NCBI GenBank assembly: GCA_965283875.1
Contig: CBDIQC010000001.1
Location: 106,085 to 170,084, forward strand
Length of the DNA stretch: 64,000 nt
Direction: 5' to 3'
DNA from: an uncultured Elusimicrobia bacterium
GTDB taxonomy: Bacteria; Elusimicrobiota; Elusimicrobia; UBA1565; UBA9628
The notes under the pieces were generated by a model. The model had not been told where the DNA came from and searched no databases. It worked only from the letters and a program-made list of their open reading frames with translations. Shown here one piece after another: positions 9,200-59,383 of this stretch. Positions within the stretch are counted from its first letter, which is position 1; each line of letters opens with the position of its first letter. The position numbers were made by a program, and so were the translations under genes.

Positions 9200-10528
9200 T
9201 TACGCGGCGCGCAACGCGACGGAGAACGTCGAGCCGCCCGGCTGGCGGCTCTCCACCCACACCCGGCCGCCTTGCGCCTCGACGAGGTGTTTGACGATGG
9301 CCAGGCCCAGGCCCGTGCCGCCCGCCTCGCGCGTGCGCGCCTTGTCCACGCGGTAGAAACGCTCGAAGACGCGCGGCAGGTCGGCCTCCGGGATGCCCAG
9401 ACCGCTGTCGCGCACCGCGAAAACGACCTCCGCGCCCTGGGCGCGGGCGGAGACCTCGACGGCCCCGCCGGATTCGGTGTATTTGACGGCGTTGTCCACG
9501 AGGTTGACCAGCACCTGGCGCAACTGGTCCTTGTCGGCCAACACGCGCGGCAGGTCTTCCGGCAGGGTCACGCTCAACGCCACGCCGCGGCCGGCGGCGG
9601 CCGCCCCGAAGTGACGCGCCACCTCGCGCGCCAGCGGGCCCGCCTCGACGGGCGCCAGGCGCGGCGGCCGATGGCCCGATTCGATGGCGGAAAGGTCGAG
9701 CAGGTCGTCCACGAGCTTCGTGAGGCCCTGGGCCTGCTCCTCGATGGTCTTGAGGAACTCGAGGCGGTGCTCCTTGTCGTCCACCGCGCCCTCGCGCAAG
9801 GTCTCGGCATAGCCGCGGATGGAGGACAGCGGCGTGCGCAGCTCGTGGCTCACGTTGGCCACGAAGTCGCGGCGCATCTGCTCGAGGCGGCGCAGGCGGG
9901 TGATGTCGTGCAAGACGACCAAGGCGCCCGTCGGCTGGCCCGCGTCGAGAAGCGGAACCGCGTAAGCGTCGAAGACGAGCTCGTCAGGCGCGAACAAGCG
10001 CAGCTCGCGCGAGAGGCGCTCCTTGCGCTCGAGCACGACGCCCAACAGCGAGACGAGGCCGTGATGGCGCAGGCTCTCGAGATACGAACGGCCGCGCGCG
10101 TTCTCCGCGTCCACGCCCAGGAGCTTCGAAAGCGCCGCGTTGACCAGGATGACGCGCCCGGCGCTGTCCACGGCCACGACGCCTTCCGTCATCTGCCCGA
10201 GGATGGCCGACAGCTGCGCTTCGTCGCGCGTCCAAGCGCCCACGGCCACGAGCAGGCCTTCATGCAGTTCGCCGAGCGCCTGCGTCAAGGCGTCGCCGCC
10301 CGGCGGACGAGCTCCCTCGTCTCCCGCGGCCCAACGGCGAACGACGAGCGAATGAGCGGCCAGGCGCGCGTCGAAGGCGAGGCCGACCGCCAACGCCGCC
10401 GCCGCGACGAGCGCGACGACGGCGAGCGCGGCCCACGGTCTGGACGCGGACAGCACCGCGGCCGCGGCGAGGGGGGCGCACACGAGGGCCGCGAACAACG
10501 CGGCCCGGCGGCCCGGGAACGCGCGCAT
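9200..10528 (-). CDS. phoR: sensor histidine kinase, PhoR-like
   Basis: 442 aa with 2 TM, a PAS-like segment, H-box SHELRTPLSSIRGY and an HATPase domain (GTGLGLAIVKHLVEAQGG). ATGA overlap with phoB. Confidence 0.85.
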   Translation of the reverse strand: MRAFPGRRAALFAALVCAPLAAAAVLSASRPWAALAVVALVAAAALAVGLAFDARLAAHSLVVRRWAAGDEGARPPGGDALTQALGELHEGLLVAVGAWTRDEAQLSAILGQMTEGVVAVDSAGRVILVNAALSKLLGVDAENARGRSYLESLRHHGLVSLLGVVLERKERLSRELRLFAPDELVFDAYAVPLLDAGQPTGALVVLHDITRLRRLEQMRRDFVANVSHELRTPLSSIRGYAETLREGAVDDKEHRLEFLKTIEEQAQGLTKLVDDLLDLSAIESGHRPPRLAPVEAGPLAREVARHFGAAAAGRGVALSVTLPEDLPRVLADKDQLRQVLVNLVDNAVKYTESGGAVEVSARAQGAEVVFAVRDSGLGIPEADLPRVFERFYRVDKARTREAGGTGLGLAIVKHLVEAQGGRVWVESRQPGGSTFSVALRAA

Positions 10529-11211
10529 CAGTCGAGCTTGATGCGGTAGCCGACGTTTTTGACCGTGGCCACGCGCGCGGCCTCGCCGCCGAGCTTCTCG
10601 CGCAGGCGGGCGACGTGCTGGTCCACGGTGCGGGTGTCGATCTCCATGGACTGGTCGTAGCCCCAGATCTTCTCGAGAATCTGGTCGCGGCTCATGACCT
10701 TGCCGCCGGCCGTGAGCAGGAGCTTGAGGAAGTCGAACTCCTTGGAGGTCAGCTCGACGGGTTTGCCCTTCACCTTCACCTCGTAACGCTCGATGTCGAG
10801 CTCGATGCCGCCCGCGCGCAGCAGCGCCGCGGGCGCGGCCCCCGGGCCGGCGCGGCGCAGGAGCGCCTTGACGCGCGCCATCAGCTCGCGCACGCCGAAC
10901 GGCTTGACCACGTAGTCGTCGGCGCCCAGCTCCAGACCCAGCACGCGGTCCACTTCCTCGCGGCGCGCGGTGAGCATCAAGACCGGCGCGGCGGATTCCT
11001 TGCGGAACAGCTTGAGGACCTCGAAGCCGTCGAGCTTCGGGAGCATCGCGTCGAGCACGATGAGCTCGGGCTTCTCCTTGCGCGCGGCGGTCATGCCGGC
11101 CTCGCCGTCGCCCGCGGTGACGACGCGGAAGCCCTCCTTCTCGAGGTTGTACTTGAGCAGGCGGACGATCTCCTTATCGTCTTCGACGACGAGGATCTTC
11201 TCCTGGGCCAT
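10528..11211 (-). CDS. phoB: OmpR/PhoB-family response regulator
   Basis: Receiver domain (ILVVEDD..LDAMLPKLDG..KPF) plus a winged-helix domain (TRTVDQHVARLREKL..VGYRI). Start taken as MAQEK (ATG 11209-11211); ATG 11232 is an alternative. Confidence 0.88.
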   Translation of the reverse strand: MAQEKILVVEDDKEIVRLLKYNLEKEGFRVVTAGDGEAGMTAARKEKPELIVLDAMLPKLDGFEVLKLFRKESAAPVLMLTARREEVDRVLGLELGADDYVVKPFGVRELMARVKALLRRAGPGAAPAALLRAGGIELDIERYEVKVKGKPVELTSKEFDFLKLLLTAGGKVMSRDQILEKIWGYDQSMEIDTRTVDQHVARLREKLGGEAARVATVKNVGYRIKLD

Positions 11212-11245
11212 GCGCTTATGGGACCAAATCATGGCGGAAAGGTCA

Positions 11246-11263
11246 ACGACGGCCGCGTGACGA
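11246..11263 (-). promoter_or_regulatory. Pho-box-like pair upstream of phoB
   Basis: Minus strand reads TCGTCAC-gcgg-CCGTCGT with an 11-bp period, about 12 nt upstream of CATGAT. Confidence 0.4.
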
Positions 11264-11268
11264 ACGGC

Positions 11269-11762
11269 TCAGCTCAGCTGGCGCAGGACGCGCGGGGGGA
11301 GGGACCAGGCCAGAGTCGCCTTGCCGGACGCGGGCTCGGAGAGCTCCAGGAGGCACGCCTGCGCCTTCTTGAGCGACAACACGGAGCGCGGCTCCCCGGT
11401 CAGCAGCCACGAGGCGAAGCGCGAGAGGTGCGGCTCGTGACCGACCAGGGCCACCTTCTCCTCCTCGCGCGCCGCCAGCCACGCGGCCAGCTCCTCGAAC
11501 GGGCGCGAGGGAACGAGCGCGGGGCACGCCGCCACCGGGGCGTCCAGTTCTCGCGCGAGCAGGGCCGCGGTCTGGCGCGCGCACGCAGCCACGGGCTGGT
11601 GCCGATGACGTCAACGCGCGCGAGCGCCGCGAGGCCTTCGGCCGCCTGCGCGCGTTTTTCGGCGCCCTCGGCCGTGAGCGGCCGCGCCGAGTCGGGACGT
11701 CCGGATTCGGCCCAGTCCGCCTTGTCGGCGGCGAGGCCGTGCCGCACGATCAGTAGCTCCAT
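11269..11762 (-). CDS. sixA: SixA-type phosphohistidine phosphatase, one frame break
   Basis: The N-terminus MELLIVRHGLA..RPLTAEGAEK..VIGTSP carries the RHG motif. The sequence continues in another frame as VAACARQTAALLA..VALVGHEPHLS. A 1-nt loss in a C run at ~11593 would join the two frames. Confidence 0.75.
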
Positions 11763-11785: not shown

Positions 11786-12571
11786 ATGTCCAAGGAGTTC
11801 GACGCCTTCGCGAAGCTCCTCTTCCGCCGGCTCGACATCGACGACCTGCGCAACGTCGAGATCGAGTGCAAGATGCGCGTGGACCCCGATGAGGCGTCCG
11901 AAGTGCGCGACTGGCTCCTCGACCTGAAGGACATCAAGCACCGCAAAAGCGTCTCCTTCTTCGACCAGTACCTCGACACGCCCGGCTACGAGGTGCTCAA
12001 GGCGGGGGCCTCGCTGCGCCTGCGCTACAAGAAAAACGGCACCGCCGTGTACCTGCAGTACAAAGGGCCGGGCTTCTTCAAGGACGGCCTGCTCTACCGC
12101 TCGGAGTTCGCCTCCGGCGAGCTCGAGAAGCTGGTGCGCGAGGAAAGCCATCACGACATCGTCCGTTTCTCCGACGACACGTTGGCCAACATCCTGCGGC
12201 GCAACGTCTCGCCGGACATGGCCGAATCCATGCGCCGCCACCTCGGCGCGGGCGTGGTCCGCCGCATCAATTGCGGGCCCATCCTGGCGCTCTACCAGAA
12301 GGAGAAGTTCGAGCTGGACCTGGGCTCCGCCTTCCTCGAGCCGTCCTTGGACCGCATCTCCGCCTTCCACATCGCCAAACGCGGCCTGCACGCCCTCTCG
12401 ACCTTCTGCGAGTTCGAGAACGAGATCAAGGCCGGCGACGGGTCGCTGGAGGCCAAACTCGAGCACATGGACGAGCTCATCGAGTTCAACGAGGAGATCC
12501 AGGACGAGTTCGACCTCCGCCCCGAGCGCCTCGACAAGTACCGCCGCTGCGCGTCCTTCTTCGTTAAGTAG
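11786..12571 (+). CDS. CYTH-domain (triphosphate tunnel metalloenzyme) protein
   Basis: 261 aa with the ExExK signature VEIECKMRV near the N-terminus. The charged beta-strand pattern is typical of CYTH. Confidence 0.8.
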   Translation: MSKEFDAFAKLLFRRLDIDDLRNVEIECKMRVDPDEASEVRDWLLDLKDIKHRKSVSFFDQYLDTPGYEVLKAGASLRLRYKKNGTAVYLQYKGPGFFKDGLLYRSEFASGELEKLVREESHHDIVRFSDDTLANILRRNVSPDMAESMRRHLGAGVVRRINCGPILALYQKEKFELDLGSAFLEPSLDRISAFHIAKRGLHALSTFCEFENEIKAGDGSLEAKLEHMDELIEFNEEIQDEFDLRPERLDKYRRCASFFVK

Positions 12572-14711
12572 TCTTGGTCCGGTCGGCCAGCGCGGAATCG
12601 CGGTAGTCGGAGCGCGCGAGGGCCTCGAAGAAGGTCTGGGAGCGCACGGGGGCGGCGCCGGGGCCCGGGCTGACGCGCGCATAGGAGCCGTCGGGCTTTA
12701 GCTGCCAGGCCTTCTGGTTGTCGGCCAGGCCCTTCCCCAGGATGGTGTCGCGCACGTATTTCTTGAGGGTGGGGTCCTTCACGGGGAAGGCCACCTCGTA
12801 ACGCGAGTAGAAGTTGCGCGGCATCCAGTCGGCGCTGGAGAGGTACATCTTGCGCGCGCCGCCGTGGCGGAAATAATACACGCGGCTGTGCTCGAGGAAG
12901 CGGTCGATGACGCTGACGACGCGGATGTTCTCGGAGAGGCCCGCGATGCCCGGACGCAGGCAGCAGATGCCGCGCACGAGCAGGTCCACCTTCACGCCGG
13001 CCGTCGAGGCGTCGTAAAGCGCCTCGACGATCTCGGGGTCCTGAAGGGAGTTCATCTTGGCGACGATGTGGCTCTTGCCGGTGAGGCGGTGAAAGCGCAC
13101 CTCCTCCTGGATGAGCCGCAGCATCTCATCGTGCAGATTGACCGGCGCCACGAGCAGCTCCGTGAGCCCCTCCGGGCGCTTGCCCTTCGACAAGGCGTCG
13201 AAATAATTCAGGACCTCGCGTCCCACGCCCTCGTCGGCGGTGAGCAGGCCGAGGTCGGTGTATTGGCGCGCGGTCACGGGATGGTAGTTGCCGGTGCCCA
13301 GGTGGGAGTAGATGCGCTCGACGCCCTCCTCCTCGCGCACGACGGCCGTGACCTTGGAGTGGACCTTGTAGCGGCCCAGGTGGCGCACCACGCGCACGCC
13401 GGCCTTGCGCAGCTCCTCGGCCCAGCGCAAATTATTCAGCTCGTCGAAGCGCGCCTTGATCTCGACGTAGGCCGTGACCTTTTTGCCGTTGGCCGCCGCG
13501 GTTTTGAGCGCGCCCATGATGGGCGAATCGGCGCTGGTGCGGTAAAGCGTGTGATAGATGCGGCGCACGCCCGGGTCGTGCGCCGCGGCCTCCATGAACT
13601 TGACCACGATGTCGAAGGCGTCGTAGGGATGGTGGAGCAGGATGTCCTTGCGCCTGACGATCTCGAAGGCCGAGGACGGCTTGCGGAAGGGGGCGGGCAC
13701 CTGGGGCTCGATGGGCGGGTAACGCAGGCCGCCCGCCTTGTGGGCTTCGATGCGCGAGAGCGTGCGCATGTCGAGCGGCAGGTCGAACCGGTAGAGCGAG
13801 GACGAATCCAGGCCTAACGCGGAGGCGAGGAACAACGCTCCCTCGGAGTAGGCGGGCGCGTCCACCTCCAGGCGCACCACCTTGGAGTGCAGGCGCCGCG
13901 CGACCGCCTCCATGATCTGCTCCTCCAGGTTCTCGTCGTCGTCGGGACGCCAGCGCAGGTCGGCGTCGCGGATGATCTTGAAGGGGAAGGACTCGATGAC
14001 CTCGCGGTCGGGGAACAGGTCGTCGGCGCGGTCGGAGAGCCAGCGCTCCGCCAAGGCGTAACGTTTCACGCCGTCCTTGGTGGGCAAGGAGACCAGCCGG
14101 CCTTCGCGGTCCTCGATGCTGATGATGGCGTATTCGCGCGGGAAACGCACGAACACGTGCAGGCGTTCGCTCATCAAGGCGGGCGGGGGCTCGGGGTAAC
14201 GCCGCACCATGACCTTGAGCGGCGGCAGGCGCTCCTGGATCTCGGAATCCGGCGCGGCCTCGGCCAGGAACTCCGTGAGCATCTCGATGCCCTCGGCCTT
14301 CAGCGCCCCGATGATGTCGCGCAGCACCTCGGCCTGGCGGGATTTCTGGCGCAAGGCGTGCTCGCGGATCTGCGCGATGACCTGGCGCGCGCTCATGCCG
14401 TCGGGGAAACGCTGCACCCCGCCGCCGCGTCGCGCGAGTTTGGCGATCTCGGCGACGCGCACCATGAAGAACTCATCGAGGTTCGATGACACGATGGCGC
14501 AGAAGCGCAGGCGCTCGAGCGCGGGCACCGAGGCGTCCGCGGCTTCGGAAAGCACGCGGTCGTTGAACGCCAGCCAGGACAGGTCGCGGTTGAAGAAGCG
14601 CTCCGTCTCGCGCAGGCCGCCGTCCTTGGGGGGCGCGGCGTGAGGCGCGTGGGCGTCGAGCTTCAGCGGCAGGATTTTGGAACGGGCCATGGCGTGATCC
14701 TTACGCGCCAT
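12564..14711 (-). CDS. ppk: polyphosphate kinase 1
   Basis: 715 aa. PPK1 N-terminus FFNRDLSWLAFNDRVLSEA, SNLDEFFMVRV and two PLD-like C domains. Translation may start at the second ATG (14690). Confidence 0.95.
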   Translation of the reverse strand: MARKDHAMARSKILPLKLDAHAPHAAPPKDGGLRETERFFNRDLSWLAFNDRVLSEAADASVPALERLRFCAIVSSNLDEFFMVRVAEIAKLARRGGGVQRFPDGMSARQVIAQIREHALRQKSRQAEVLRDIIGALKAEGIEMLTEFLAEAAPDSEIQERLPPLKVMVRRYPEPPPALMSERLHVFVRFPREYAIISIEDREGRLVSLPTKDGVKRYALAERWLSDRADDLFPDREVIESFPFKIIRDADLRWRPDDDENLEEQIMEAVARRLHSKVVRLEVDAPAYSEGALFLASALGLDSSSLYRFDLPLDMRTLSRIEAHKAGGLRYPPIEPQVPAPFRKPSSAFEIVRRKDILLHHPYDAFDIVVKFMEAAAHDPGVRRIYHTLYRTSADSPIMGALKTAAANGKKVTAYVEIKARFDELNNLRWAEELRKAGVRVVRHLGRYKVHSKVTAVVREEEGVERIYSHLGTGNYHPVTARQYTDLGLLTADEGVGREVLNYFDALSKGKRPEGLTELLVAPVNLHDEMLRLIQEEVRFHRLTGKSHIVAKMNSLQDPEIVEALYDASTAGVKVDLLVRGICCLRPGIAGLSENIRVVSVIDRFLEHSRVYYFRHGGARKMYLSSADWMPRNFYSRYEVAFPVKDPTLKKYVRDTILGKGLADNQKAWQLKPDGSYARVSPGPGAAPVRSQTFFEALARSDYRDSALADRTKTT

Positions 14712-14720
14712 GATAGCTCT

Positions 14721-15964
14721 TTAGCGTTCGTCTCGGCCCAGGCGCGCCGCCACGGCGAGCTGGGCCAGGACGAGGACTCCCAGACCCGCGCCCACGAGCG
14801 CGAACGAGCCGTAGGCCGTGAAACCGACGGCGAACGCCGCCGCCATGAGCCCTTTGAGCGTGACCGACGCCGAGGTCGTGCCCACGCGGGCCACCGACGT
14901 CACCCGTCCGAACAAGCCGGCCGGGGTGAGCTCGCCGAGCGCGCGCAGAAGCGAGAGCTCGGCGCAGGCGTTGGCCGCGCCGAAAATCGTCGCCCCCAGG
15001 ATCATGGGCCACAGGAGCGCCGGGGCCCAGGAGACGGCCAACGCGGCGGTGCCGACGGCGCCGACCAGCACGCTGGCCCGCGTGGACAGCTTCAAGCGGG
15101 GGAAGAGCAGCGCGCCGATGATGCCGCCCAAGCCGAAGGACGCGCCGATCCAGCCCACGGCGGCCGGCTGGCCCAGGATGGCCTTGGCGAAAAACGCCGC
15201 CCATACCTTGCGCAGGGGGAATAAATTGAACAACGCCAGGCCGGCGACCGGTCCGAGCAAGCGGCGGTCGCGCGCGATCTGGCGCCAGCCTTCCCAATCG
15301 AGCCAGGCGGCCTTCTTCACCGTCGCGAGCTTCACGGGCTGCACCCGCTCCGCGGGGACGCGGGCGTAAAGGAAGCCCGCGAGGAGGAATCCGACCGGGA
15401 TGGCCGCGTGCGCCGCGAAGCCCTGCTTCGTCAGCAGAAGGGCGCCCAGCAGCAGAGGACCGATGACCGCGCCCAGATCGAAGGTGAATTCGTAGGTCGC
15501 GTTGAGACGGTCGAGCTCCTGGCGGTCGCCGTCGGCCAAGCCCAGCGGCAGAGCGTGCACCGAGGTGTCCACGTAGCCCCGCACGAAAGCGTCGAGGGTG
15601 TACGCGCACAATGCCCAGGTCAAGGTGAGTCCGCCGAAGGCCCAGGCCAGCGGCACCAGGGCCAGGCCGCGGCGCGCCCCCAGGTCGCCAGCACGAGCGC
15701 GTTGCGGCAGCCGAGCCGGTCCACGGTCCCGCCGCTGACCAAGGTGCCCAGCATGTGCACCCCGGTCTCGGCCGACGCCACGAAGGCGGCCAGTCCGAGC
15801 GAGCCGGACAGCTCGGCGATGACCAACGGCTGGACGAGGTGCATCGCGTTGTTGGAAATCTGCGAGCTCAGCACGCCGGCGACGAAGCCGGACAAGGGCG
15901 CGCGGCGTTCCTCGGCGCGCGGCGCGGCGATTTCGGGCAGGGGAGCGGCGGCGGTCAGTTCCAT
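14721..15964 (-). CDS. MFS transporter (paralogue 1), one frame break
   Basis: The N-terminal 114-aa frame and the C-terminal 311-aa frame join at ~15665 (..ATWGRAAA / LALVPLAWAFGG..). About 12 TM overall. Confidence 0.75.
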
Positions 15965-16599
15965 GTCGTTTTCCTCACATATTCACGGCGGGCCGGCACG
16001 CTCACGAGGCGGCGCTCCGGCAGTATCAAGGCGGTCAACGAGCCGCCGTACACGCAGCCCGTGTCCAGGCCGACGGCGTTGGGTCTCAAGACGGGCTCGC
16101 GGCGGGCCCAATGCCCGAACACGACCAGCCGCGACTCGCGGTAATGCTCGCACCACGCCCGTCCGTCGTCGAGACGGCGCAGATTGGTGAGCTGGGCGCG
16201 GGACCGCCATTCCAGTCCTTCGCGCGGGTCGAAACCCGCGTGGACCACGGTGAAACCCTCGCCCGAGGCCGTCACGGGCCAGCGCTCGATGAAACGCATC
16301 GCGTCCTCGTAGCGCCCGCCGAGCTGACGGTAGGTCTCCTCGTCGTGCGCCTTCTCGCGTGAAAACGTGCCGGCCTTCCAATGGCTGAGCAGGCGCAGCT
16401 CGTGGTTGCCGATGACGCATTCGAGATTAGGCGCGGACATCGCCCAATCGAGCACGGCGCGGGAGTCGGGCCCCTTGGAGACGAGGTCCCCGACGCTGAT
16501 CAGCCGATCCTCGGGTCCCGCCTGCGTCGCGCGCAACAGATCCCGCAGCTCGTCGAAGCAGCCGTGCACGTCGCCGATGACGATGGTGCGGCGGCTCAT
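15955..16599 (-). CDS. PPP-family metallophosphoesterase (ApaH/PrpE-like)
   Basis: 214 aa with motifs GDVHG, GDLVSKGPDS and GNHE. ATGA overlap with the upstream gene and a 10-nt overlap with MFS-1. Confidence 0.85.
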   Translation of the reverse strand: MSRRTIVIGDVHGCFDELRDLLRATQAGPEDRLISVGDLVSKGPDSRAVLDWAMSAPNLECVIGNHELRLLSHWKAGTFSREKAHDEETYRQLGGRYEDAMRFIERWPVTASGEGFTVVHAGFDPREGLEWRSRAQLTNLRRLDDGRAWCEHYRESRLVVFGHWARREPVLRPNAVGLDTGCVYGGSLTALILPERRLVSVPARREYVRKTTWN

Positions 16600-18467
16600 T
16601 CGTCGCCGCCGTCGCCCGCGGGCTCGAGCCCGTCGCGTTTCATCTTCGCGAGGTAGCGCGCGTGCGCCTCGACGATTTCGTCGCGGATGGTACGGCCCGC
16701 CGCGGCGACGTCGTCGAAGCTCGCGTCGAGATGCGCCTCGAGCTCCTCGGCCGCGCTCCCGTCGAGCGAGAGGCGGTGCGCGCGGCCCAGCTGGGTGCCC
16801 ACGGCGTAGGCGAAGTCGGCCTGCTGGCTGAGCGTGAGCGCCTTCTTGATCTTCACGTTCTGCGGCGGCAGGCCGCGCACGTAATATTCGACGCCGTCCA
16901 GGCGCGCGCCGCCGGGCCGCAGCTCCCAGCCCGGCGCGTACAGATGCGTCGCGGCGAGCATCCGCTCGGCCTCCGAGCCGTAGGGGCTCTTGTACCACTC
17001 GGTGTCGGGGTCGGTGCGGGCGCGTTTGATGTTGAGGAACAGGCGGTCCTTGCCGGAGGCCGCGTTTTTGGGCGCGAGGACCACGAGGAACAGGTCGCGG
17101 AAGCCCATCGAGCCTTGCCCGCGACCCGCCTCCTCGATGAAGTAGTCGTCGAGCGTGCCGTCGCCGCGGCCGGCGGCGTAGGAGCGCACCAGCTCGACGA
17201 CGGCGGCGTCATCGGCGGGCAGCGGATTCTTGCGCATCTCCGCGGCCCACTTCTTGTTCGCGGCGAGATAGGCGTCGGTGCTGGCCTCGTCGGCCTCGGG
17301 CTCGACGTCCTTGAGCTGGCGGACCTCGGAGAACGGCCGCGCGGGGTGGCGGAAGCCGTAGAGGTAGCCCTTCTTGAGCTGGCGCAGCACCTCCTTATCG
17401 AGCAGCTCGTCGCCGCCCTTCTTGCGGCGCAGCGAGATGGAGACCATCAGCCGTACGAGGTCCAGGCGTAGGGGCCGACGCGCGAGCGGTCGAAGTCCAC
17501 CATGCGGCCGCGCCGTGGTTGACCTTGGCGTAGTTGTCGAGGTGGGGCGAGCCGTGCAGCAGCACGCGCGGCATCCGCATGTCCAAAAGCTGGGCGAAAC
17601 GCTCCTGCATGGGCAGCAGCATGTTGCGGAAGTAGAAGTGGCTCCCGCGTTTCTCGTGCGCGTAATTGCGGCGGATATTCTCCGCGTCGCCGGCCGGATC
17701 CTTGTCGAACAGGTTCGGCGCGGCGAAGGCCGCGGCGCGGCGGAAGGCGACGACAGCGGCCCGAGCGCCGCGAACGCGAGGCGCTCCGTGTCGGCGAAGA
17801 TTTCGTCGCGGCCGCGCGAGGAGTCCACCGTCTGGAAGCCGAACTCGCGCGCCTGTTTGTCGTATTCGGCCGTGACGCCGGTCTGGAACAGCTTGAAGTT
17901 CTCGATGGGGTCTTCGGAGAGGTTCGCGTCGAGGCCGGCCTCGTAGTATTTAAGGCCGCGGCGCGCCTTGGTTTCGGCGGCGGCCTCGGGGTCCTCTTCG
18001 AAGTCCTCGGACAGGCCGAGCCGGCCCTCGCTGCGCGACAGCACGCGCCCGATGGCCGTTTCGACCGGCAGGCGGTAATAAAGGGTCAGGTCCGGACGCG
18101 GCGCGAACTCGTACAGGTTGCGCAGCCACCGCGCGTCCATGCCGCGCACGCGGTCTCGGGCCAAGGCCGTGAAGAACCAGCGGTCGGCGAGCACGACCGC
18201 GCCGCGCTCCAGCGCCGGAAGGATGGTTTTATCGAGGCGGTCGGCCAGGTCGGAGGCGTGGAGCAGGGAGAACGTCTTGGGCGTCAGCGTGCGCTCCTTC
18301 TTGGCGCCTTTCACCGCGTCCGACACCAGGTCCGACGAGTTCCAGGTCGTGAGCACGACCTCGACGCCTTCGGCCTCGAGGCGCTCCTTGAGCCGCTCCA
18401 TCTGGGTGGATTTGCCGGACCCGTCGAGTCCTTCCACCACGATGAGCCGTCCGGGCAGGCCGTGCAC
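16596..18467 (-). CDS. thymidylate-kinase-like P-loop domain fused to a DUF2252-like (kinase-fold) domain, two compensating frame breaks
   Basis: The N-terminus after the GTG start reads HGLPGRLIVVEGLDGSGKSTQ (Tmk P-loop). The middle, ..RNMLLPMQERFAQLLDMRMPRVLLHGSPHLDNYAKVNHGAA, is in another frame at ~17770-17495. The first frame then resumes with VDFDRSRVGPYAWDLVRL... Confidence 0.7.
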   Translation of the reverse strand: MHGLPGRLIVVEGLDGSGKSTQMERLKERLEAEGVEVVLTTWNSSDLVSDAVKGAKKERTLTPKTFSLLHASDLADRLDKTILPALERGAVVLADRWFFTALARDRVRGMDARWLRNLYEFAPRPDLTLYYRLPVETAIGRVLSRSEGRLGLSEDFEEDPEAAAETKARRGLKYYEAGLDANLSEDPIENFKLFQTGVTAEYDKQAREFGFQTVDSSRGRDEIFADTERLAFAALGPLSSPSAAPRPSPRRTCSTRIRPATRRISAAITRTRNAGATSTSATCCCPCRSVSPSFWTCGCRACCCTARPTSTTTPRSTTARPHGGLRPLARRPLRLDLVRLMVSISLRRKKGGDELLDKEVLRQLKKGYLYGFRHPARPFSEVRQLKDVEPEADEASTDAYLAANKKWAAEMRKNPLPADDAAVVELVRSYAAGRGDGTLDDYFIEEAGRGQGSMGFRDLFLVVLAPKNAASGKDRLFLNIKRARTDPDTEWYKSPYGSEAERMLAATHLYAPGWELRPGGARLDGVEYYVRGLPPQNVKIKKALTLSQQADFAYAVGTQLGRAHRLSLDGSAAEELEAHLDASFDDVAAAGRTIRDEIVEAHARYLAKMKRDGLEPAGDGGDE

Positions 18468-20210
18468 CGGCGACGGGCGCGGCCCCGCGTCGGGCGCGGG
18501 ACATGACGCCCAAGAAACCCGTCGCCGACGGCGGCGCGGGCGCCGAGAGACGGCGGGCCGCCCGATGCTGGGCGGCCGCGACCACGGCGACGCCGCCCGC
18601 GATGAGCCAGAACGAGGACGCCGGCGCCAGCGCCGCGGCGAAGGCCAGGCCCGCCAGCACGCGCACGCCGAGCGAGGACAGGTTCGCGGTGAAACGCGCC
18701 GCGCCGACGGCCGCGCCGGCCTTGCCGTCGGGCGCGCGGGCCTGGAGCGCGGCGGCGAGCGAGAGCCGCGCGGACACGTTGGCCGCGGAGAAGGCCAGCA
18801 CGCCGAGGGCCGCGGGCAGGAAGGCGCCGGGCAGGAACGCCGCGCCGAGGGACGCGGCGCCGACCACGCCGACCGTCAGCCAGGTTCCAAGCGCCGATTT
18901 TGGAGAAAAGCGGCCATAGGCCACCGAGCCGATGAGGCCGCCCACGCCGAAAAGGCCCACGAGCCAGGCGGCCGAGGCGGGATCGGCGAGCACCTGCTCG
19001 GCGAACACCGCGGGCAACACGGCCTTCAGGGGGTATAACGTGAGCAGGGCCGTGGCGAAAGAGCCGTGCGCGTCCACCCGTCGAAGACCGGGCGCGACGC
19101 CGGAGGCTGCGGGGCCTGCGGGCGGTCGGCAGGGAAGCCGCGCGCGGCAGGCCGAGTACGAGAGCGCGACGCCGGCGAACACCGCCGGGGCCAGCCACAA
19201 CGCGGCGGGCGACGCCGCGCCGCCCGCGGTGAGGATCAGGGCGCCCACGAGGAACGGCCCCGCGAGGCTCCCGCTCCGAAGAAACCTTGGTTCTTGGCGA
19301 GAATTTTCTTGAGAAGCGGGACGTCCTTTCCGGCGAACTCGAGAGGAACCGTGTTGCGCGCCGTATCGGCGACGCCGCGCGCGAGCGATTCCCGCCTGTA
19401 AACCGCGAACACGGCCGGCATGGTCAAGCCGCCGGTCGCGGCGAGCAACGGCAGCGCCGCTACGGCCGCGCCGCGAGCCAGCGTGGTCGCGACCAGCACG
19501 GCGCGCGAGCCGAAGCGGTCCACGAGGCGGCCGCCGAGCAAGGTGCCGGCCGCGTCGATGGTCGAGGCCAGGGCCGCGCAGGCCGCGGTCGCGGCCGAGC
19601 CCGTGACCGTGAGCAGCAGCAGGGGCATCGTCACCTGCAGCGCGTTGGAGGCGAGCTGCGCGCCGAAGGTGCCGGCGAGGAAGGCCTTCAGGCGGGGGGC
19701 GGGTTTGGCCGGGCGCGCGGGCGCGGGGATGGAGGGGGAGTCGTTGGGAGAAGAGCGGACGGCTCCGCGCGGCAACGGGATGGAAACGGATTGGGCGGCG
19801 ATTCCCAGGGGCACGGCTTCGCCCGCCGCTTCGCGGCGGGCGGGTTGGTCAACGAAGTCCACCGCGGCGCGGTCTTGGGCGGCGTCGGAAGGACGGGCGG
19901 CGACCTCGCCGGCGGCGACGGCCGCGGCGGCGGCGAGCGTGATGGCGGCGGCAGGGGCGGGGGCGGGCGCGGCGGCAACGGCGGTACGCGGCCGGCTTCG
20001 AGCGAGCGGCGGGCGCGAATAACGGCGTATTAAGGAGAGCGCCGGCGCCGACTGGCCGACGGTGAGCGGCGGGGCCGTCAGGCGGACCATGCCGACGGCC
20101 GGCGTCGAAAACGCCGGGGACAGACGCGGGACCCCGATGCGGGCCAAAGCGGCCGACGCGGGGGCGGGGATGGTCTGGAGGAGCAACGCGGCGATGATTA
20201 ATCGTCTCAC
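18468..20210 (-). CDS. MFS transporter (paralogue 2) with ~190-aa Ala/Pro-rich N-terminal extension, frame break ~19262, 3' end undefined
   Basis: GTG 20208-20210. The MFS part aligns with paralogue 1 (SNALQVTMPLLLL; LYPLKAVLPAVFAEQVL). No stop occurs in any frame before the Tmk-like start. Confidence 0.6.
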
Positions 20211-21910: not shown

Positions 21911-22678
21911 ACGAACTTCGGCAGGCGCTTCTCGCGGACGGCGGCGACGCCTTCAACCAGGTCGGCGCCTTTGAAGGTCACGGCCTGGCCCTTGGCCTCG
22001 TGCGCGAGATACGGGTCGAGCTTCTCGCCGATACGGGTCTCGGCCTTCAAGATGCGCAAAGACGGGCCTGAGGCCGCGGCCAAGGACTTGGCCAGCTCGC
22101 CGGTCATCAACGTCAGCTCCTCGGCCGTTTCCGCGCCGGCGATGGCCGCGCCCCATTCCACCAGCTCGCGGCCCGTGAAGCCGCGGCCGGTGAAGAGCAG
22201 CTCGCGCGCGCGTCGCGTCGCCGAAGGCCATCCGCGCCAACGGCCAGGCGGCCATGCCCGGGTTGAGGCCCAGGCGCACGAAGTTGAGCGAGAACTTGGC
22301 CTCGAGCAAGGTCACGCGCACGTCGCAGGCCAGCGCGAGGCACAGGCCCGCGCCCACGGCGGTGCCGTGAAGGGACGCGACGGTCACCTGGGGCACGTCG
22401 CGGATGGACAGGAAGGAGCCGTAGAACTTGCGCATCAGCGGCGCGAGTTTGGCCTGGGGCCGCGCCATGTTGGTCTCGATGAAGCCCAGGTCGCCGCCCG
22501 CGGAGAACGCCGGGCCGGCGCCGCGCACCACGAGCACCTTGCTGGGCTCCTTGGCGGCGCGTTTGACCGCCGCGAGGAAGTCCGCGGCCATGGCCTCGGA
22601 CATCGCGTTGTAGGCGTCGGGCCGCTCCAAGGTGAGCGTCGAGACGTGACCTTCCGTGCGCAGGGAGACCGTGGACAT
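21907..22678 (-). CDS. enoyl-CoA hydratase/isomerase (crotonase) family, one frame break
   Basis: [15 protein letters not shown] and [16 protein letters not shown]. The break is in a CG repeat at ~22205 (..[23 protein letters not shown]..). Confidence 0.8.
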
Positions 22679-22685
22679 GGCTCTG

Positions 22686-22712: not shown

Positions 22713-23760
22713 GTGAGGCTCAAGGACGTCGAGACCGGCGGCAAGGCGCTCCTGCGCGCCACCGTGCTCAAGCTCCTGCCCGCGCCGCGCCGCCACGACG
22801 CGCCCGTGGACCCGGGGTCCGTGCGCCGCGTGCTCGCCGTGCGCCACGACGCGCGGCTGGGCAACCTGCTCCTGCTCACGCCCGCCTTGAAGCTGCTCAA
22901 GCTCGCCTTCCCGAAGGCCGCGGTGGACGTGCTCATCGCCGACGATTACGGCACGGCCCTGGCGCGCAACCCGAACGTGGACGGCCTGCTCACGGCGTCG
23001 AGCCTGCCGGCCCTGCGCTTCAAAGGCTACGACCTCGCCATCGACTTCTCGCCGCAGCACGCGTTCTCGCTGTCGAGCGCGGTGTGGACCGCGCTATCGG
23101 GCGCGCCGCGCCGCGTCGGCTTCGAGCGCGGCGACGCCGGCCGGTTCCTGGGCGACCTGTGCCCGTCCCGGCCGCGCGCGCCCATGAGACCGCCAACCTC
23201 GCCGCCCTCGTGCGCGCCGCCGCGCCGGGCGCGGCCCTGCCGCCCGACGCCGAGCTGCGCACCGAATGGTTTTTCGCCCCGGGCGAAGTGGAAGAGGGGG
23301 AGAGGACCTGGGAGTCGTGGGGCCTCGACGCGCAGTCGGTCGCCTTGTTCCTCGGCGCGCGCGCCGAGAAAGGCTGGACCCGGCCTGGTTCCTGGAGCTG
23401 GCGGCGCGCGTCGCCGCCGCGGGACGCAAGGCCGTGCTCGTCGGCGGCCCCGCCGAGCGCCGCCTCATGGAAGGCTTGAGCCTGCCCGGCGGCGCCAGCC
23501 TCGCGCCGGCGCTGCCCCTGCGCCGCTTCGCCGCGGCCATCGCGGCCGCGCGCGCCGTGGTCTCGGCCGACACCGGGCCCATGCACCTGGCCGTCGCGGT
23601 GCGCACGCCCACCCTCCAGCTGTTCTCCCACACCGAGCCGTGGCGCTTCGGCTACGCGCACCTGCCCGAGCACGCCTTGCTCGAGACCCCGGGGCGGCAC
23701 GCGAGCGTGGACGAGGCCTGGAACGCGTTGTCGGGCTTGCTGGCTAAAAAGCCGGCCTGA
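22713..23760 (+). pseudogene. glycosyltransferase family 9 (heptosyltransferase-like), two frame breaks as assembled
   Basis: RRVLAVRHDARLGNLLLLTPAL.., HETANLAAL.. and ..VVSADTGPMHLAVAVRTP lie in three frames (breaks at ~23155 and ~23370). The start is uncertain (22677, 22713 or 22806). Confidence 0.65.
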
Positions 23761-24741: not shown

Positions 24742-26738
24742 CTACTCGTAGCGAAGGGCTTCGATGGGGGACAGCAGCGACGCCTTGCGCGCGGGCCAGA
24801 AGCCGAAGATGACGCCCGTGCCCGCCGAGAAGAAGAAGGCCAGCAGCACGGACTGCGCCGTCACGACCGCGGCCCAGCCGGCGAAGGTGGCCATCACGAA
24901 GGCGATGGTCATGCCCAGCGCGATGCCGATGAGCCCGCCGCACGTGGACAACGCCGCGGCCTCGACGAGGAACTGGATGAGCACGGCGCGCCGCGTCGCG
25001 CCGATGGCCTTGCGCAGGCCGATCTCGCGCGTGCGCTCGGAAACGGAGACGAGCATGATGTTCATGATGCCGATGCCGCCGACCACCAGCGAGATGGCGG
25101 CCACGATGCCGAGGAGCAGGCTGAAGATCTTGGAGGTGCCGGTCAGCGCGCTCTGGATCTCCGCCATGTTGCGCAGCGTGAAGTCGTCGTCCTTGTAGTC
25201 GGGCAGGCGGTGGCGCTTGCGCATGAGCGCGCGCACCGCCGCCATGACGGCGTCGGTCTGGTCGGCGGCGGTCGCCTCGATGGACACGGTGCTGAGGAAC
25301 TGCCGGCCCAGCAGGCGCTTCATCGCGGTCTTCTGCGGCACGATGATGCGGTCGTCCTGGTCCTGGAACCCGCCGGAGCCCTTGCGGGGCAGCACGCCGA
25401 TGACGCGGAACTTCTTGCCGTCGAGGTTGACCGTGCGGCCCACGGGGTCCTCGACGCCGAAGAGGTTGGTGACGACGGTCTGGCCCAGCAGGGCGACGCG
25501 GGCCATGGCCTCGTTCTCTGCGGCGGTGAAGAAGCGGCCGTAGTAGGGCGCGGAGTTGCGCATCTCGGCGTACACGGGCTCGGCGCCGATGACGCTGGTG
25601 TTCACGTTTTTATCGCGATAAACGGCCTGCACGTTGCCGCTGACCTCGCCGGCGGCGCGCAGGACGCCCGGGTGCACGGCTTTGATGGCGGACACGTCGT
25701 CGAGCGCGAGGCGCGAGAAGGTGCCGGAGCCGCCGCGCGCGCCGCCGCCGCCGCCGCGCGGCGCCTGGGGCATGAGCATGATCAGGTTCGAGCCCAGGCT
25801 CGAGAGCTGGGTCTCCACCGACTTCTGCGCGCCGCGCCCGATGGCGAGCATCGCGATGACGGCCGTGACGCCGATGAGGATGCCGAGCATGGACAAGGCG
25901 CTGCGCAGCTTGTTGGCCCGGATGGCGCCCAGCGCGGAGCGGGCGTGCTCGAGCAGCTCCTCGGCGGTGAGCTCGCGCACGCGCGGCAGCTCGGTGAGCG
26001 TCGCCGCCGCGCGCTCGCGCACCGCGGCCCCGCCGCCGCCCCCGGCCCCGCCCTTGGGCTCGCCGTTGCGCTCGTCGGCGACGATGCGGCCGTCCTTGAT
26101 GCGGATGATGCGTTTGGCGTAGGCCGCGATGTCGGGCTCGTGGGTGACCATGATGACGGTGATGCCCGAGCGGTTCATGGCGGTGAGGCGGCCCAGGATC
26201 TCCTCGGCCTGATCGGAGGCCAGGTTGCCCGTGGGCTCGTCGGCGAAGATGATGCGGGGACGGTTGACCAGCGCGCGCGCGATGGCCACGCGCTGCTGCT
26301 GGCCGCCGGAGAGCTGGTTGGGGGCGTGGTCGAGCCGGTCGCCCAGGCCCACCTCGCGCAAGACCTCCTCGGCGCGCGCGTCGCGCCCGGGCTCGCCGGT
26401 GTAGAGCATCGGCAGCGCCACGTTGTCCTGGGCGCTCGTGCGCGCCAGGAGGTTGAACATCTGGAAGATGAAGCCGATGGTGCGCGAGCGCAGCGCGGCG
26501 CCTTCGTCGTCGCTCAGGCGCGAGACGTCCAGGCCCATCAGCTTGTACGTCCCCGACGTCGGGCGGTCGAGCAGGCCGAGAATCTGGGTGAGCGTGGATT
26601 TGCCCGAGCCCGAGGGCCCATCACCGCGACGAAGTCGCCCTCCTCGATGACCAGGTCGATGCCCTTGAGCACCTGGAGCGTGCCGCCGCCCACCTCGTAG
26701 CTGCGGGTGACGCCGGACAGCTCGATGAGCGCGCTCAT
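24742..26738 (-). CDS. macB: MacB-type ABC transporter (fused ATPase + FtsX permease), frame break in Walker A
   Basis: [20 protein letters not shown], then a break at ~26615. Restoring one C gives [24 protein letters not shown], and the C-terminal FtsX-type 4-TM domain ends [11 protein letters not shown]. Confidence 0.9.
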
Positions 26739-26746
26739 GGGCGGCT

Positions 26747-27787
26747 CTAGGGGGTCCGCGCCGCCGGCGTGGACGCCGCGGCCGCGCCGGTGCGGCGCTG
26801 GCGGGGCGCGGAGCCGTCGGAGCGGCCCATGTTGCGGCCGCCGGGCACGGCCGACAACGGGCTCGACGCCGGCGCCGTCTGCGGCACGTAGCGCCCGCTC
26901 GCGATGACGACGGTGTCGCCGGCGTTGAGGCCTTCGACGATCTCCACCTTCTCGTCGGCCTCGATGCCGGTTTTGACCTCGCGCTCCACGGGTTTGCCGC
27001 CTTCCTCGGCGGCCGGCAGATAGACGACGCGTTTGCCGTCCTTGCCGTCGCGCACCGCGTTGGCGGGCAGCACGAGCGCGTCGGCCTTGCTGCGGATGAC
27101 GAAGCTGACGTTGGCCGTCATCTGCGAGCGGAAAAACGCGGGGACCGCGACCGGACGCACCTTCACGCCGTAGGTGATGACGTTGGAGACGTTTTTGCCC
27201 TCGTAGAGCATGTCGATGACCGTGCCGTCCACGGGCTGGTCGGGGTAGGAGTCGAGGCGGATGCGCGCCTTCTGGCCCACCTTCACCTTGCCGATGTCGG
27301 CCTCATCGACCTGCGCGTTGACGATGAGGGTGTCGGCCACGGCGAACAAGGTGGTGCCCGTGCCCACGGCCTCGCCCACGACCACGTTGCGCAAGATGAC
27401 CTCGCCGGGAAGCGACGCGACCACGGGCGTGGGTTTGTAGGCGTCCTGCCACCTCTTGAACTCCTCGGGCCCCTGCGCGCGGGCGGCGTCGAGGATGGCG
27501 GCGCGGTCGGTGGAGCTGAGCCACGCCACGATCTGTCCGGCCTTCACCCGGTCGCCCTCGTCCACGAGCAAGGTCTCCACGCGGCCCGCGACGGGCGGCT
27601 TGATCTCGACGCGGTTGTTGGGCGAGACCGAGCCCGTGGCATCGACGGTCTCCTCCAAGGTCTCGAGCTGCGCCACGACGGGGCGGCTGCGTTCGCCGCG
27701 GGCGGCGCGTTTGCTCTTGTTCCTATAGAGGGTGTAGGCCCCGCCGGCGACGGCGAGCACGACGACGGCGACGATGGCGCGCTTCAT
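26747..27787 (-). CDS. macA: periplasmic adaptor (HlyD/MacA family)
   Basis: 346 aa with an N-terminal TM, a lipoyl/barrel-sandwich pattern (VKAGQIVAWL.., ..LVLPANAV..) and a Pro/Ala-rich tail. Confidence 0.85.
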   Translation of the reverse strand: MKRAIVAVVVLAVAGGAYTLYRNKSKRAARGERSRPVVAQLETLEETVDATGSVSPNNRVEIKPPVAGRVETLLVDEGDRVKAGQIVAWLSSTDRAAILDAARAQGPEEFKRWQDAYKPTPVVASLPGEVILRNVVVGEAVGTGTTLFAVADTLIVNAQVDEADIGKVKVGQKARIRLDSYPDQPVDGTVIDMLYEGKNVSNVITYGVKVRPVAVPAFFRSQMTANVSFVIRSKADALVLPANAVRDGKDGKRVVYLPAAEEGGKPVEREVKTGIEADEKVEIVEGLNAGDTVVIASGRYVPQTAPASSPLSAVPGGRNMGRSDGSAPRQRRTGAAAASTPAARTP

Positions 27788-27788
27788 C

Positions 27789-29033
27789 TCATTCTCCCAA
27801 TGCCCGGCCCAAGGCCCGGTCCCACGCCGTCTCGGCGTCCATCGCCGTGCGGCGGGCCGACACCGCCTGCCGCTCGGCGGAGACGCGGTCCGACACGATG
27901 AGCTCCCAGTTGTCGAAGCTGAGCAGGCCCGAGGCGTAACGCACGTCGGCCTGCCCTGGTGCGCTGGCGCGCGGCGGCGAGCAGCGTCCTAGGTACTGCC
28001 GACCTGCGCGTCGGCGTCCGCCAAGGACGCCAGGCGTCTCCGAGCTCGCTGAGAGGCCGGACTGGCGCGCGGCGGACAGGTCCTGCGCGGGCGGCCTCGC
28101 GGCCGCGTTTGGCCGACAGGCTGGCGAGCATGGTCTGCGCCGGCCCGCCGCCGAACAGCGGCAGGCTCAGGCTCGCGCCCGCCGACCAGCCGTATCGCGA
28201 GGAGGGGAACTCCGTGCCACCGGTGCGCGTGCGGGAGTAGTTCGCGCTGAGGTTGGGGAAGTAGTCCGCGCGGGCCGAGGCCAGCGCCGCCTCCGAGGAG
28301 CGCAGCGACGCCTCGGCCGAAGCGATCTCGGGGCGCAGCGGCAGCAGCGCGCCGAAGTCGTCGGGGCGCGCGGGCGGCGGGGCGGCGGTGAAGGTGCCGG
28401 TGGCGACGTACGCCTCGAAGCCCTCGCGGCCGAGCTGGCGGCCGAGCTCGCGCTGCGAGGTGCGCAGCTCGCGTCCGGCCGTGGCCAAGGCGACCTCGGC
28501 CTGCAGGAGCTGGGCCTTGGCGCGCAGCATGTTGCCCTTGGATTCGCGGCCCGACTCGTAACGCAGGTTGACCAGCTCCGCGTTGTTGCGCCGCAGCGTC
28601 AGCACCCGGCGCGCCACCTCCAGGCCGGACTGGGCGAGCAGGAGGGCCGAGAAGGAGCGGCGCAGCGAGGAGCGCAGGTCCGCCGAGGCGCGGCGCAGGG
28701 ACGCCTCGGAGGAGGCCAGCGACGCCGACGCCGAGCGGATGGAGGCGTAGTCGCCGAGGTCGAAGAGGGTCAAGGACGCGGACGCCGACGCGCTCCAGGC
28801 GTTGTCGCGCGCGACGTTGGTCTGCGAGACGGAGTTCGTCAGCGAAGGGAGGGGAGCAGGCGGTTATAGGACGAATAATAGGAAAGGCGGCGCGCGTCTC
28901 GCGTCAGGCGAGACGAGGACAGGCCCGGGTTGCCGTCGGCGGCCTGGCGCGCGACGTCCTCCCACGACACGACCAGCGCCCGGGCCGGGACGGCGGCGGC
29001 CAACAAAGCCGCCGCCAAGGCCCTAACGCGCAT
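27789..29033 (-). pseudogene. TolC-family outer membrane factor, several frame breaks as assembled
   Basis: Signal MRVRALAAALLAAAVPARA. OEP repeats (..NAELVNLRYESGRESKGNMLRAKAQLLQAE..). The true C-terminus ..YASGLLSFDNWELIVSD..ALGE stops at 27789-27791, 1 nt before the macA ATG. Confidence 0.7.
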
Positions 29034-59370: not shown

Positions 59371-59383
59371 GGCCGCTCCGTCT

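Follow-up and report, generated by a model that had tools for sequence, protein, structure and literature searches.

A PPK3-like kinase domain fused to a permease and a DUF2252-like fold in Elusimicrobiota, with a possible role in polyphosphate homeostasis

The first account of polyphosphate kinase 3 (PPK3), a soluble archaeal enzyme of two subunits, dates from 2026 (PMC12995831). Its catalytic subunit (cPPK3), Saci_2019, is a homologue of S. tokodaii STK_15430, lacks dTMP kinase activity, and requires activation by rPPK3, an inactive paralogue in which the P-loop Lys and the DRX Arg are lost or changed (Hofmann et al., J Biol Chem 2026, PMC12995831). The PPK3 clade is made up chiefly of bacterial thymidylate kinase (Tmk) paralogues encoded in polyphosphate (polyP) neighbourhoods (PMC12995831). 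Here, we analyse a 64,000-nucleotide stretch of contig CBDIQC010000001.1 from an uncultured Elusimicrobia bacterium (hereafter the window), which contains a gene for a membrane protein with a cPPK3-like domain. This domain has no regulatory subunit and is fused instead to a transporter of the major facilitator superfamily (MFS) and to an uncharacterised kinase fold related to DUF2252, in an operon with ppk1.

The P-loop domain of the fusion protein resembles cPPK3 in having the Tmk fold, in being a paralogue of a canonical tmk encoded elsewhere, in sharing the WNSS, AKK, and ARDxVRG motifs together with an intact P-loop and DRX Arg, and in its polyP-related neighbourhood (a SixA-like gene and a polyP kinase gene). 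It differs in sitting in a membrane protein, between the MFS permease and the DUF2252-like fold, in the lack of rPPK3 and of an adjacent ppx or CHAD gene at the locus (none was seen beside the fusion gene), and in the presence of ppk1 in the same operon. With canonical Tmk (TIGR00041/PF02223) it has in common the fold, the P-loop, and a significant match to the family hidden Markov model, but the substrate-site motifs are different, and the score to true Tmk structures is less than half that to STK_15430. DUF2252 (PF10009) is a protein-kinase-like fold with swapped lobes (PMC9758233; bioRxiv 2026.09.18.752743). The C-terminal domain of the fusion protein resembles this circularly permuted member of the protein-kinase-like/APH clan in scoring above the gathering cut-off, in its permuted lobes, and in its Gly-rich loop, beta3 Lys, Asn, and DFD, whereas its subfamily is shorter (~370 aa), reads HG[S/N]PHxDN where DUF2252 has HGD..N, and invariably comes with an MFS or TauE transporter.

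The SPX-MFS vacuolar phosphate transporters and the VTC polymerase-translocase likewise combine a membrane transporter with a phosphate or polyP enzyme, and eukaryotic homologues of the fusion module carry SPX (P0068, P0067, and P0235), as the eukaryotic phosphate machinery does. However, VTC4 is unrelated in sequence, SPX is missing from the bacterial fusion proteins, and a coupling of synthesis to translocation is here a conjecture. Class II two-domain PPK2, of a different family, is likewise a P-loop polyP kinase that requires a second domain. In LplT-Aas an MFS permease is fused to a cytoplasmic enzyme working on its cargo, but this fusion belongs to another family, with a model match of only 21 to 23 bits. 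Elusimicrobiota, MFS, DUF2252, and SPX all go unmentioned in the PPK3 papers, and we found no paper joining "SPX domain" with "thymidylate kinase". Papers mentioning DUF2252 assign no function to it, and we know of no member with a known substrate. The locus described here gives this family, to which no function has been assigned, its first concrete context, namely pairing with a permease and, in this case, a link to polyP. The SPX-linked eukaryotic homologues connect the module to phosphate sensing and could bear on polyP synthesis in eukaryotes that lack VTC.

A preliminary description of the window had proposed a 623-aa protein, with a dTMP kinase N-terminal part and a DUF2252-like remainder, from an open reading frame (ORF) that the ORF listing places at 16596..18467 on the minus strand. 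Both domains are supported by profile matches. A Pfam scan of this focal ORF matched Thymidylate_kin (residues 11 to 159, E = 1.9e-23) and the C-terminal part of DUF2252 (residues 449 to 605, E = 1.6e-9; 37.8 bits to PF10009, gathering cut-off 22.3), and the motifs IVVEGLDGSGKSTQ and ADRWFFT are both present. The coordinates, however, were too narrow, since the focal ORF is the rear half of one MFS permease-kinase fusion gene of ~1,200 codons, whose MFS part lies upstream and whose start is the GTG at 20210.

We searched 31 related genomes for orthologues, using an intact C-terminal part of 292 aa as query. They were found in 9 of the 30 other genomes (8 of 18 congeners plus one genome from a second genus of that taxonomic order), with open frames of up to 1,235 aa. 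In the related genomes G005, G014, and G017 the protein is encoded by a single uninterrupted ORF of 1,193 to 1,215 aa, in which a signal-peptide-like N-terminus is followed by an Ala/Pro-rich region of ~170 aa, MFS_1, Thymidylate_kin, and DUF2252 plus APH. The last MFS transmembrane (TM) helices of these relatives continue in frame into VHGLPGRLIVVEGLDGSGKSTQ with no intervening stop, and the N-terminus is conserved across G005, G014, G017, G007, and G026. The single ORF of the relatives bears out the earlier view that the product is one polypeptide and not two genes. When the intact G005 orthologue was used in tblastn, the pieces in the window fell in frames -3/-2/-3/-2/-1/-3, and a frameshift-aware alignment of the G005 protein ran from 20210 to 16599 with a stop-free corrected reading. 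At least seven frame corrections are required, at the positions listed in Table 1. Identity to the orthologues is 65 to 82% in every piece of the corrected reading, there are no deletions, and the invariant residues are retained; the MFS portion of the window copy, which is split over two frames, is 45 to 66% identical to its orthologue.

Within the focal ORF, translation of the three minus-strand frames over 17200 to 17960 shows that the central ~95 residues are out-of-frame text. The ORF frame is first left between 17748 and 17726, with the best fit at ~17747, where LGPLSS passes into FRRAAAFAAPNLFDKDPAGD. The second-frame segment ends at 17505/17504 with LLHGSPHLDNYAKVNHGAA, a third-frame segment of 14 codons reads MVDFDRSRVGPYAW, and the ORF frame is regained at 17461/17460 with DLVRLMVSISL. 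There are thus three frame changes, each equivalent to one missing base (net -3), and not the two compensating 1-nucleotide indels proposed earlier. The motifs LLHGSPHLDNYAKV and VDFDRSRVGPYAW, previously assigned to the catalytic region, are indeed encoded, but they are legible solely in frames other than that of the ORF. The accompanying statement that no stop separates the domains in any frame is not literally true, as stops occur in the other two frames, outside the segments used.

Could the gene be a true pseudogene, disrupted by real frameshifts? At least seven frame changes within 3.6 kb, and its dispensability in the genus (8 of 18 congeners have it), would be in keeping with this, but the same damage is seen in a third of the neighbouring genes. 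When 26 genes were compared with a 61-kb syntenic contig of G005, 8 were frame-split in the window, among them the second MFS gene of the locus and an enoyl-CoA-hydratase-like gene; 32 kb of sequence held no fewer than 11 frame changes. The high density of splits without other decay points to indel errors of a long-read-type assembly (3 contigs, 89% completeness) rather than gene death. The identity of the pieces to the orthologues and the corrected frame, free of stops and deletions, also speak against a pseudogene, which we consider very improbable. The preliminary description had likewise attributed the breaks to indels, and the similarly split neighbours and intact orthologues support this. 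Programmed frameshifting was rejected, as the orthologues need no frameshift. Still less credible is the earlier model, in which GTG 18467 is the start of a soluble protein of 623 aa and two domains, separate from an upstream MFS gene. This GTG does lie exactly at the expected N-terminus of the Tmk domain (VHGLPGRLIVVEG), and the MFS and Tmk frames do differ in this assembly, but the difference was traced to the indel at ~18492, and the passage from MFS to Tmk is in frame and free of stops in G005, G014, G017, and dozens of database proteins. The sole database entry of ~620 aa is the window's own ORF (P0200), other short entries being "partial" or located on short contigs. With about one frame error per 2 to 3 kb in the window, ORF-based findings in this genome need comparison with relatives.

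The P-loop domain carries the motifs GLDGSGKST, TTWNSS, a basic KGAKK, DRW, and ARDRVRG. Its best match in the PDB by phmmer is S. tokodaii STK_15430 (2plr/4nzy/5h70; E = 3.9e-41, 144 bits, 38% identity), while true Tmk structures reach at most 62 bits; Foldseek with the predicted structure of the domain (pLDDT 89.6) also ranks STK_15430 above true Tmks. A canonical tmk is encoded elsewhere in the genome (G000:C1:1863228-1863785; full-length profile match, 138 bits). Its product scores up to 130 bits to true Tmk structures, has no match to 2plr, and is 30% identical to the focal domain. In an alignment with this Tmk the dTMP-site motifs (TREPGG and DR[YH]..S..AYQ) are absent from the fusion protein, TREPGGT being aligned to TTWNSSD and TDAYQG to TALARD. 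All 21 family sequences share the P-loop Lys (GK[ST]), the DRX Arg, the lid arginines, and WNSS without exception. When compared with tandem proteins consisting of two Tmk domains, the focal domain scores 184 to 200 bits to the first (c-type) half, which has an intact P-loop and WNSS, and 113 to 141 bits to the degenerate second half. The domain is therefore a non-housekeeping Tmk paralogue with cPPK3-type features. The earlier label "dTMP kinase" was right about the Tmk fold and the P-loop, but the PPK3 clade appears to describe the domain better; the NCBIfam model TIGR00041 is matched with 86 to 92 bits, borderline above its cut-off of 83.25. The annotation "dTMP kinase" in public records for these proteins is probably wrong.

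The DUF2252-like domain is matched by DUF2252 (53 bits, cut-off 22.3) plus APH in the G005 orthologue. Modelled alone (pLDDT 94.9, pTM 0.92), it has its beta-sheet N-lobe after the catalytic loop, i.e., the lobes are permuted. VIA-align found APH-type kinases of small molecules, namely N-acetylhexosamine kinase (NahK), fructosamine-3-kinase, homoserine kinase, and choline kinase, as well as macrolide, amicoumacin, and corramycin kinases, at Z scores of only 4 to 6, a level expected when the fold is permuted. These matches agree with the swapped lobes described for DUF2252. Foldseek with the isolated model gave nothing (best E = 0.03), phmmer with the domain against the PDB found nothing, and an Atlas search merely returned DUF2252. 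Conservation is complete or almost complete at the Gly-rich loop (GRGQGSMG), the beta3 Lys (LNIK), the Asn, and DFD.

Outside Elusimicrobiota the subfamily occurs as standalone proteins of ~365 to 390 aa in Bacteroidota, Bdellovibrionota, Myxococcota, Oligoflexales, and one Paracoccaceae genome. A TauE/SafE permease is the next gene, 9 to 264 nucleotides on, in 47 of the 54 standalone loci, which belong to five of these groups, and it is the sole neighbour conserved across phyla (L052 to L103). The standalone gene and TauE/SafE thus look like a conserved two-gene module, while in Oligoflexales an MFS gene lies upstream of the standalone gene. In every setting the DUF2252-like subfamily goes with a transporter, as an MFS fusion, as the neighbour of an MFS gene, or with TauE downstream. 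In a quick tree of the domain (a poorly aligned Rotaria row was ignored), the MFS-linked and eukaryotic forms cluster together with an SH-aLRT support of 95. The neighbours of the Bacteroidota standalone homologues are heterogeneous (DabA/B, UbiD, DsrE, CDO) and give no functional lead. Among the TauE-paired loci are those of Bacteroidota, Bdellovibrionota, Myxococcota, and Paracoccaceae (e.g., L092:9917-11796 of Peredibacter sp. HCB2-198). In the Bacteriovoracaceae loci L070, L074, L086, and L101, genes for thymidine kinase, two phosphoribosyltransferase-type proteins, a GHMP kinase, and a 321-aa protein lie upstream of the DUF2252-like/TauE pair; they partly overlap and have an operon-like arrangement.

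MFS_1 covers residues 193 to 530 of the G005 orthologue (E = 1.8e-22, profile positions 3 to 342 of 347). The domain is a 12-TM permease with motif A (GGKLTDRLGSK) between TM2 and TM3, and phmmer gave no match for it in the PDB. MFS proteins usually have their N-terminus inside. Here, a conserved signal-peptide-like N-terminus and a linker of ~170 aa precede a 12-TM MFS whose motif A implies this N-in topology, so that the two features conflict (window 19700-20210, minus strand; L011:2475-3000). The linker, and in principle also the kinase domains, may sit on either side of the membrane.

The fusion gene is the first gene of a conserved operon with a phosphoesterase gene, a second MFS gene (MFS2), and ppk1 (Table 1). 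This order is found in at least 12 Elusimicrobiota loci, and the conserved ppk1 synteny bears out the earlier suggestion that a neighbouring ppk1 and PPP phosphoesterase hint at polyP. The ATG of the phosphoesterase gene overlaps the stop of the fusion gene (ATGA); matches of its product to the apaH-like models NF001204 and TIGR00668 fall below their cut-offs. Beyond ppk1 lie CYTH, SixA-like, PhoB-like, and PhoR-like genes, all of them phosphate-related.

Table 1. The fusion gene, its parts, and neighbouring features in the window
Feature	Position	Strand	Basis
Whole fusion gene, ~1,200 aa when corrected	16596..20210	-	tblastn and frameshift-aware alignment with G005 orthologue
Signal-peptide-like segment (MRRLIIAALLLQTIPAPASAA), ~170-aa Ala/Pro-rich linker, first MFS half	19269..20210	-	ORF 19236..20210
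Second MFS half; frame changes at 19268, 19107, 19058, ~18492	18493..19268	-	Alignment to G005
Tmk-fold P-loop domain, putatively of the PPK3 (cPPK3-like) clade	17748..18467	-	Pfam, NCBIfam, PDB, Foldseek
DUF2252-like permuted APH-like kinase domain; frame changes at ~17747, 17505, 17461	16596..17747	-	Pfam, model, VIA-align
ApaH-like PPP metallophosphoesterase	15955..16599	-	Metallophos E = 3.3e-15
MFS2, paralogous MFS permease, frame-broken at ~15665	14721..15964	-	
ppk1 (polyphosphate kinase 1), intact	12564..14711	-	All four PP_kinase domains
CYTH protein	11786-12571	+	Pfam
SixA-like His_Phos_1	11400-11762	-	Pfam
PhoB-like regulator	10528-11232	-	Pfam
PhoR-like kinase	9200-10528	-	Pfam

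The combination of domains had been called unfamiliar, yet about 70 protein clusters in a large database carry it, nearly all from Elusimicrobiota metagenome-assembled genomes and labelled "dTMP kinase" or "MFS transporter". About 45 of the clusters have 1,150 to 1,330 aa with MFS_1, Thymidylate_kin, and DUF2252. The same fusion was thus found, intact, in related Elusimicrobiota, as the preliminary description had proposed to check. Among GTDB species genomes the Tmk-DUF2252 pair is confined to Elusimicrobiota (24 loci), and DUF2252 is rare in this phylum, with matches in 2 of 121 evenly sampled genomes. Three eukaryote-type proteins carry both domains. In P0068 (Ancoracysta twista) they are joined to SPX, in P0067 (an unidentified protist) to SPX and a TM region, and in P0073 (the rotifer Rotaria sordida) to MFS without SPX. 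Relatives of the P-loop domain with 45 to 55% identity have Ppx-GppA exopolyphosphatase (P0229 and others), HD/Ppx domain III, or SPX (P0235 and P0068) as fusion partner. Some orthologues have no Tmk domain, e.g., the 973-aa version of G026, a genome of another genus. In the quick tree the Tmk-less proteins P0058, P0064, P0069, P0070, P0072, and L015:4237-7155 are interspersed among Tmk-bearing orthologues. The pattern suggests repeated domain loss or gene-calling artefacts, G026 being the one case checked in DNA.

We favour, with some reserve, a role of the fusion protein in membrane-tethered phosphate/polyP homeostasis, for which the following mechanism may be envisaged. The affinity of the P-loop domain to STK_15430, the conserved operon with ppk1, the Pho, CYTH, and SixA-like neighbours, and the Ppx-GppA and SPX fusions of related domains speak for such a role. 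Like PPK3, the P-loop domain would transfer phosphate between polyP and ADP/ATP, in this case at the membrane. The DUF2252-like domain would bind ATP and work with the permease, either as a second kinase acting on an anionic substrate or as an activating partner in the role that rPPK3 has in archaea. The protein would thereby tie the polyP pool to transport, the cargo being phosphate or a phosphorylated anion. An anionic acceptor is plausible for the DUF2252-like domain because the general base is missing, a feature that would suit a pseudokinase equally well. It is tempting to go further and picture a self-contained membrane polyP machine, in which the PPK3-type domain makes or consumes polyP at the mouth of the MFS channel and the DUF2252-like domain acts as activator or primer, but we regard this extension as quite improbable. 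If true, the protein would be a functional analogue of the eukaryotic VTC synthase-translocase, and the homologues with SPX (Ancoracysta and the unidentified protist), along with the rotifer form without SPX, would represent an unrecognised eukaryotic polyP enzyme.

Several observations weigh against the favoured role. Nearly all published PPK3 operons have an rPPK3-like partner, and most such genomes have no ppk1 (PMC12995831). Unlike in most PPK3 genomes, ppk1 adjoins the fusion operon here, and no rPPK3-like partner lies nearby; the genome has three Tmk-like hits, the third of which (22.9 bits, ~120 kb off) is unrelated. The P-loop domain is placed in the PPK3 clade by proxy, through PDB scores and motifs. 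The orthologues without a Tmk domain (G026 and P0069 to P0072) mean that this domain is not essential to the core module. The signal peptide is at odds with the usual N-in topology of MFS proteins, and the nearest models of the MFS domain are DHA3-type exporters, at scores far under the cut-offs. Nucleotide-salvage genes adjoin the Bacteriovoracaceae homologues. In every member examined the kinase loop reads HG[S/N]PHx[D/E/A]N, and the DUF2252-like domain may be inactive because the catalytic Asp of this loop is replaced.

The salvage genes lead to one alternative, in which a nucleoside enters through the MFS domain and is phosphorylated, first by the APH-like domain to the monophosphate and then by the Tmk-like domain to the diphosphate. 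A tandem of two kinase folds would fit sequential phosphorylation, TIGR00041 (dTMP kinase) is narrowly above its cut-off, the DUF2252-like domain has small-molecule kinases as its structural neighbours, and the standalone homologue of Bacteriovoracaceae lies near genes for thymidine kinase, phosphoribosyltransferase, and GHMP kinase. However, the dTMP-binding motifs have been replaced (TREPGG by TTWNSS and AYQG by ALARD), dTMP kinase activity is absent from the closest relative that has been characterised, and polyP/phosphate genes (ppk1, PPX, SPX) make up both the genomic context and the fusion partners. The salvage-gene neighbourhood is limited to one family, and the sole cross-phylum neighbour is the TauE anion permease and not a nucleoside carrier, so that nucleoside or nucleotide salvage seems unlikely. 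A stronger contender, albeit one we still doubt, takes the DUF2252-like domain as a non-catalytic pseudokinase sensor that gates the permease, or replaces rPPK3 as the oligomerising activator, or both, leaving the P-loop domain as the sole enzyme. All 54 standalone members, and every fused one, have Ser or Asn at the position of the HGD-loop Asp, and in some the adjoining acidic residue is Ala, while a canonical DUF2252 of the same phylum (G114) retains GDAHPEN in this loop. Moreover, no rPPK3 gene was found in the genome, and rPPK3 is itself an inactive paralogue that is required for activity. A pseudokinase is harder to reconcile with the full or almost full conservation of the Gly-rich loop, beta3 Lys, Mg-binding Asn, and DFD; in addition, a phosphate-type acceptor would need no general base, and the domain is conserved also where the Tmk domain is absent.

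Other observations concern related proteins and the rest of the window. The canonical DUF2252 mentioned above, which belongs to another Elusimicrobiota family (L104:1210-2505), has 431 aa and an N-terminal signal peptide, and its kinase-like fold would therefore lie outside the cytoplasm. P0030 (1,438 aa) combines the whole fusion protein with an ApaH-like phosphoesterase. P0219 contains two Tmk-like domains in tandem, P0221 has two together with HD/Ppx domain III, P0229 (Phycisphaerales) joins Ppx-GppA to a Tmk-like domain, and P0235 joins SPX to one. In the window, the SixA-like His_Phos_1 gene is split into two short ORFs that overlap on the minus strand (11400-11762 and 11243-11614), probably through another frame error. 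Further frame-split examples between 9000 and 63000 of the window are 21913-22681, 22722-23748, 24745-27227, 27792-28967, 57893-59373, and 59814-60721. A third and more distant MFS paralogue, 26% identical to the MFS of the fusion protein and also frame-split, lies in an efflux gene array at 30346-31516 (minus strand).

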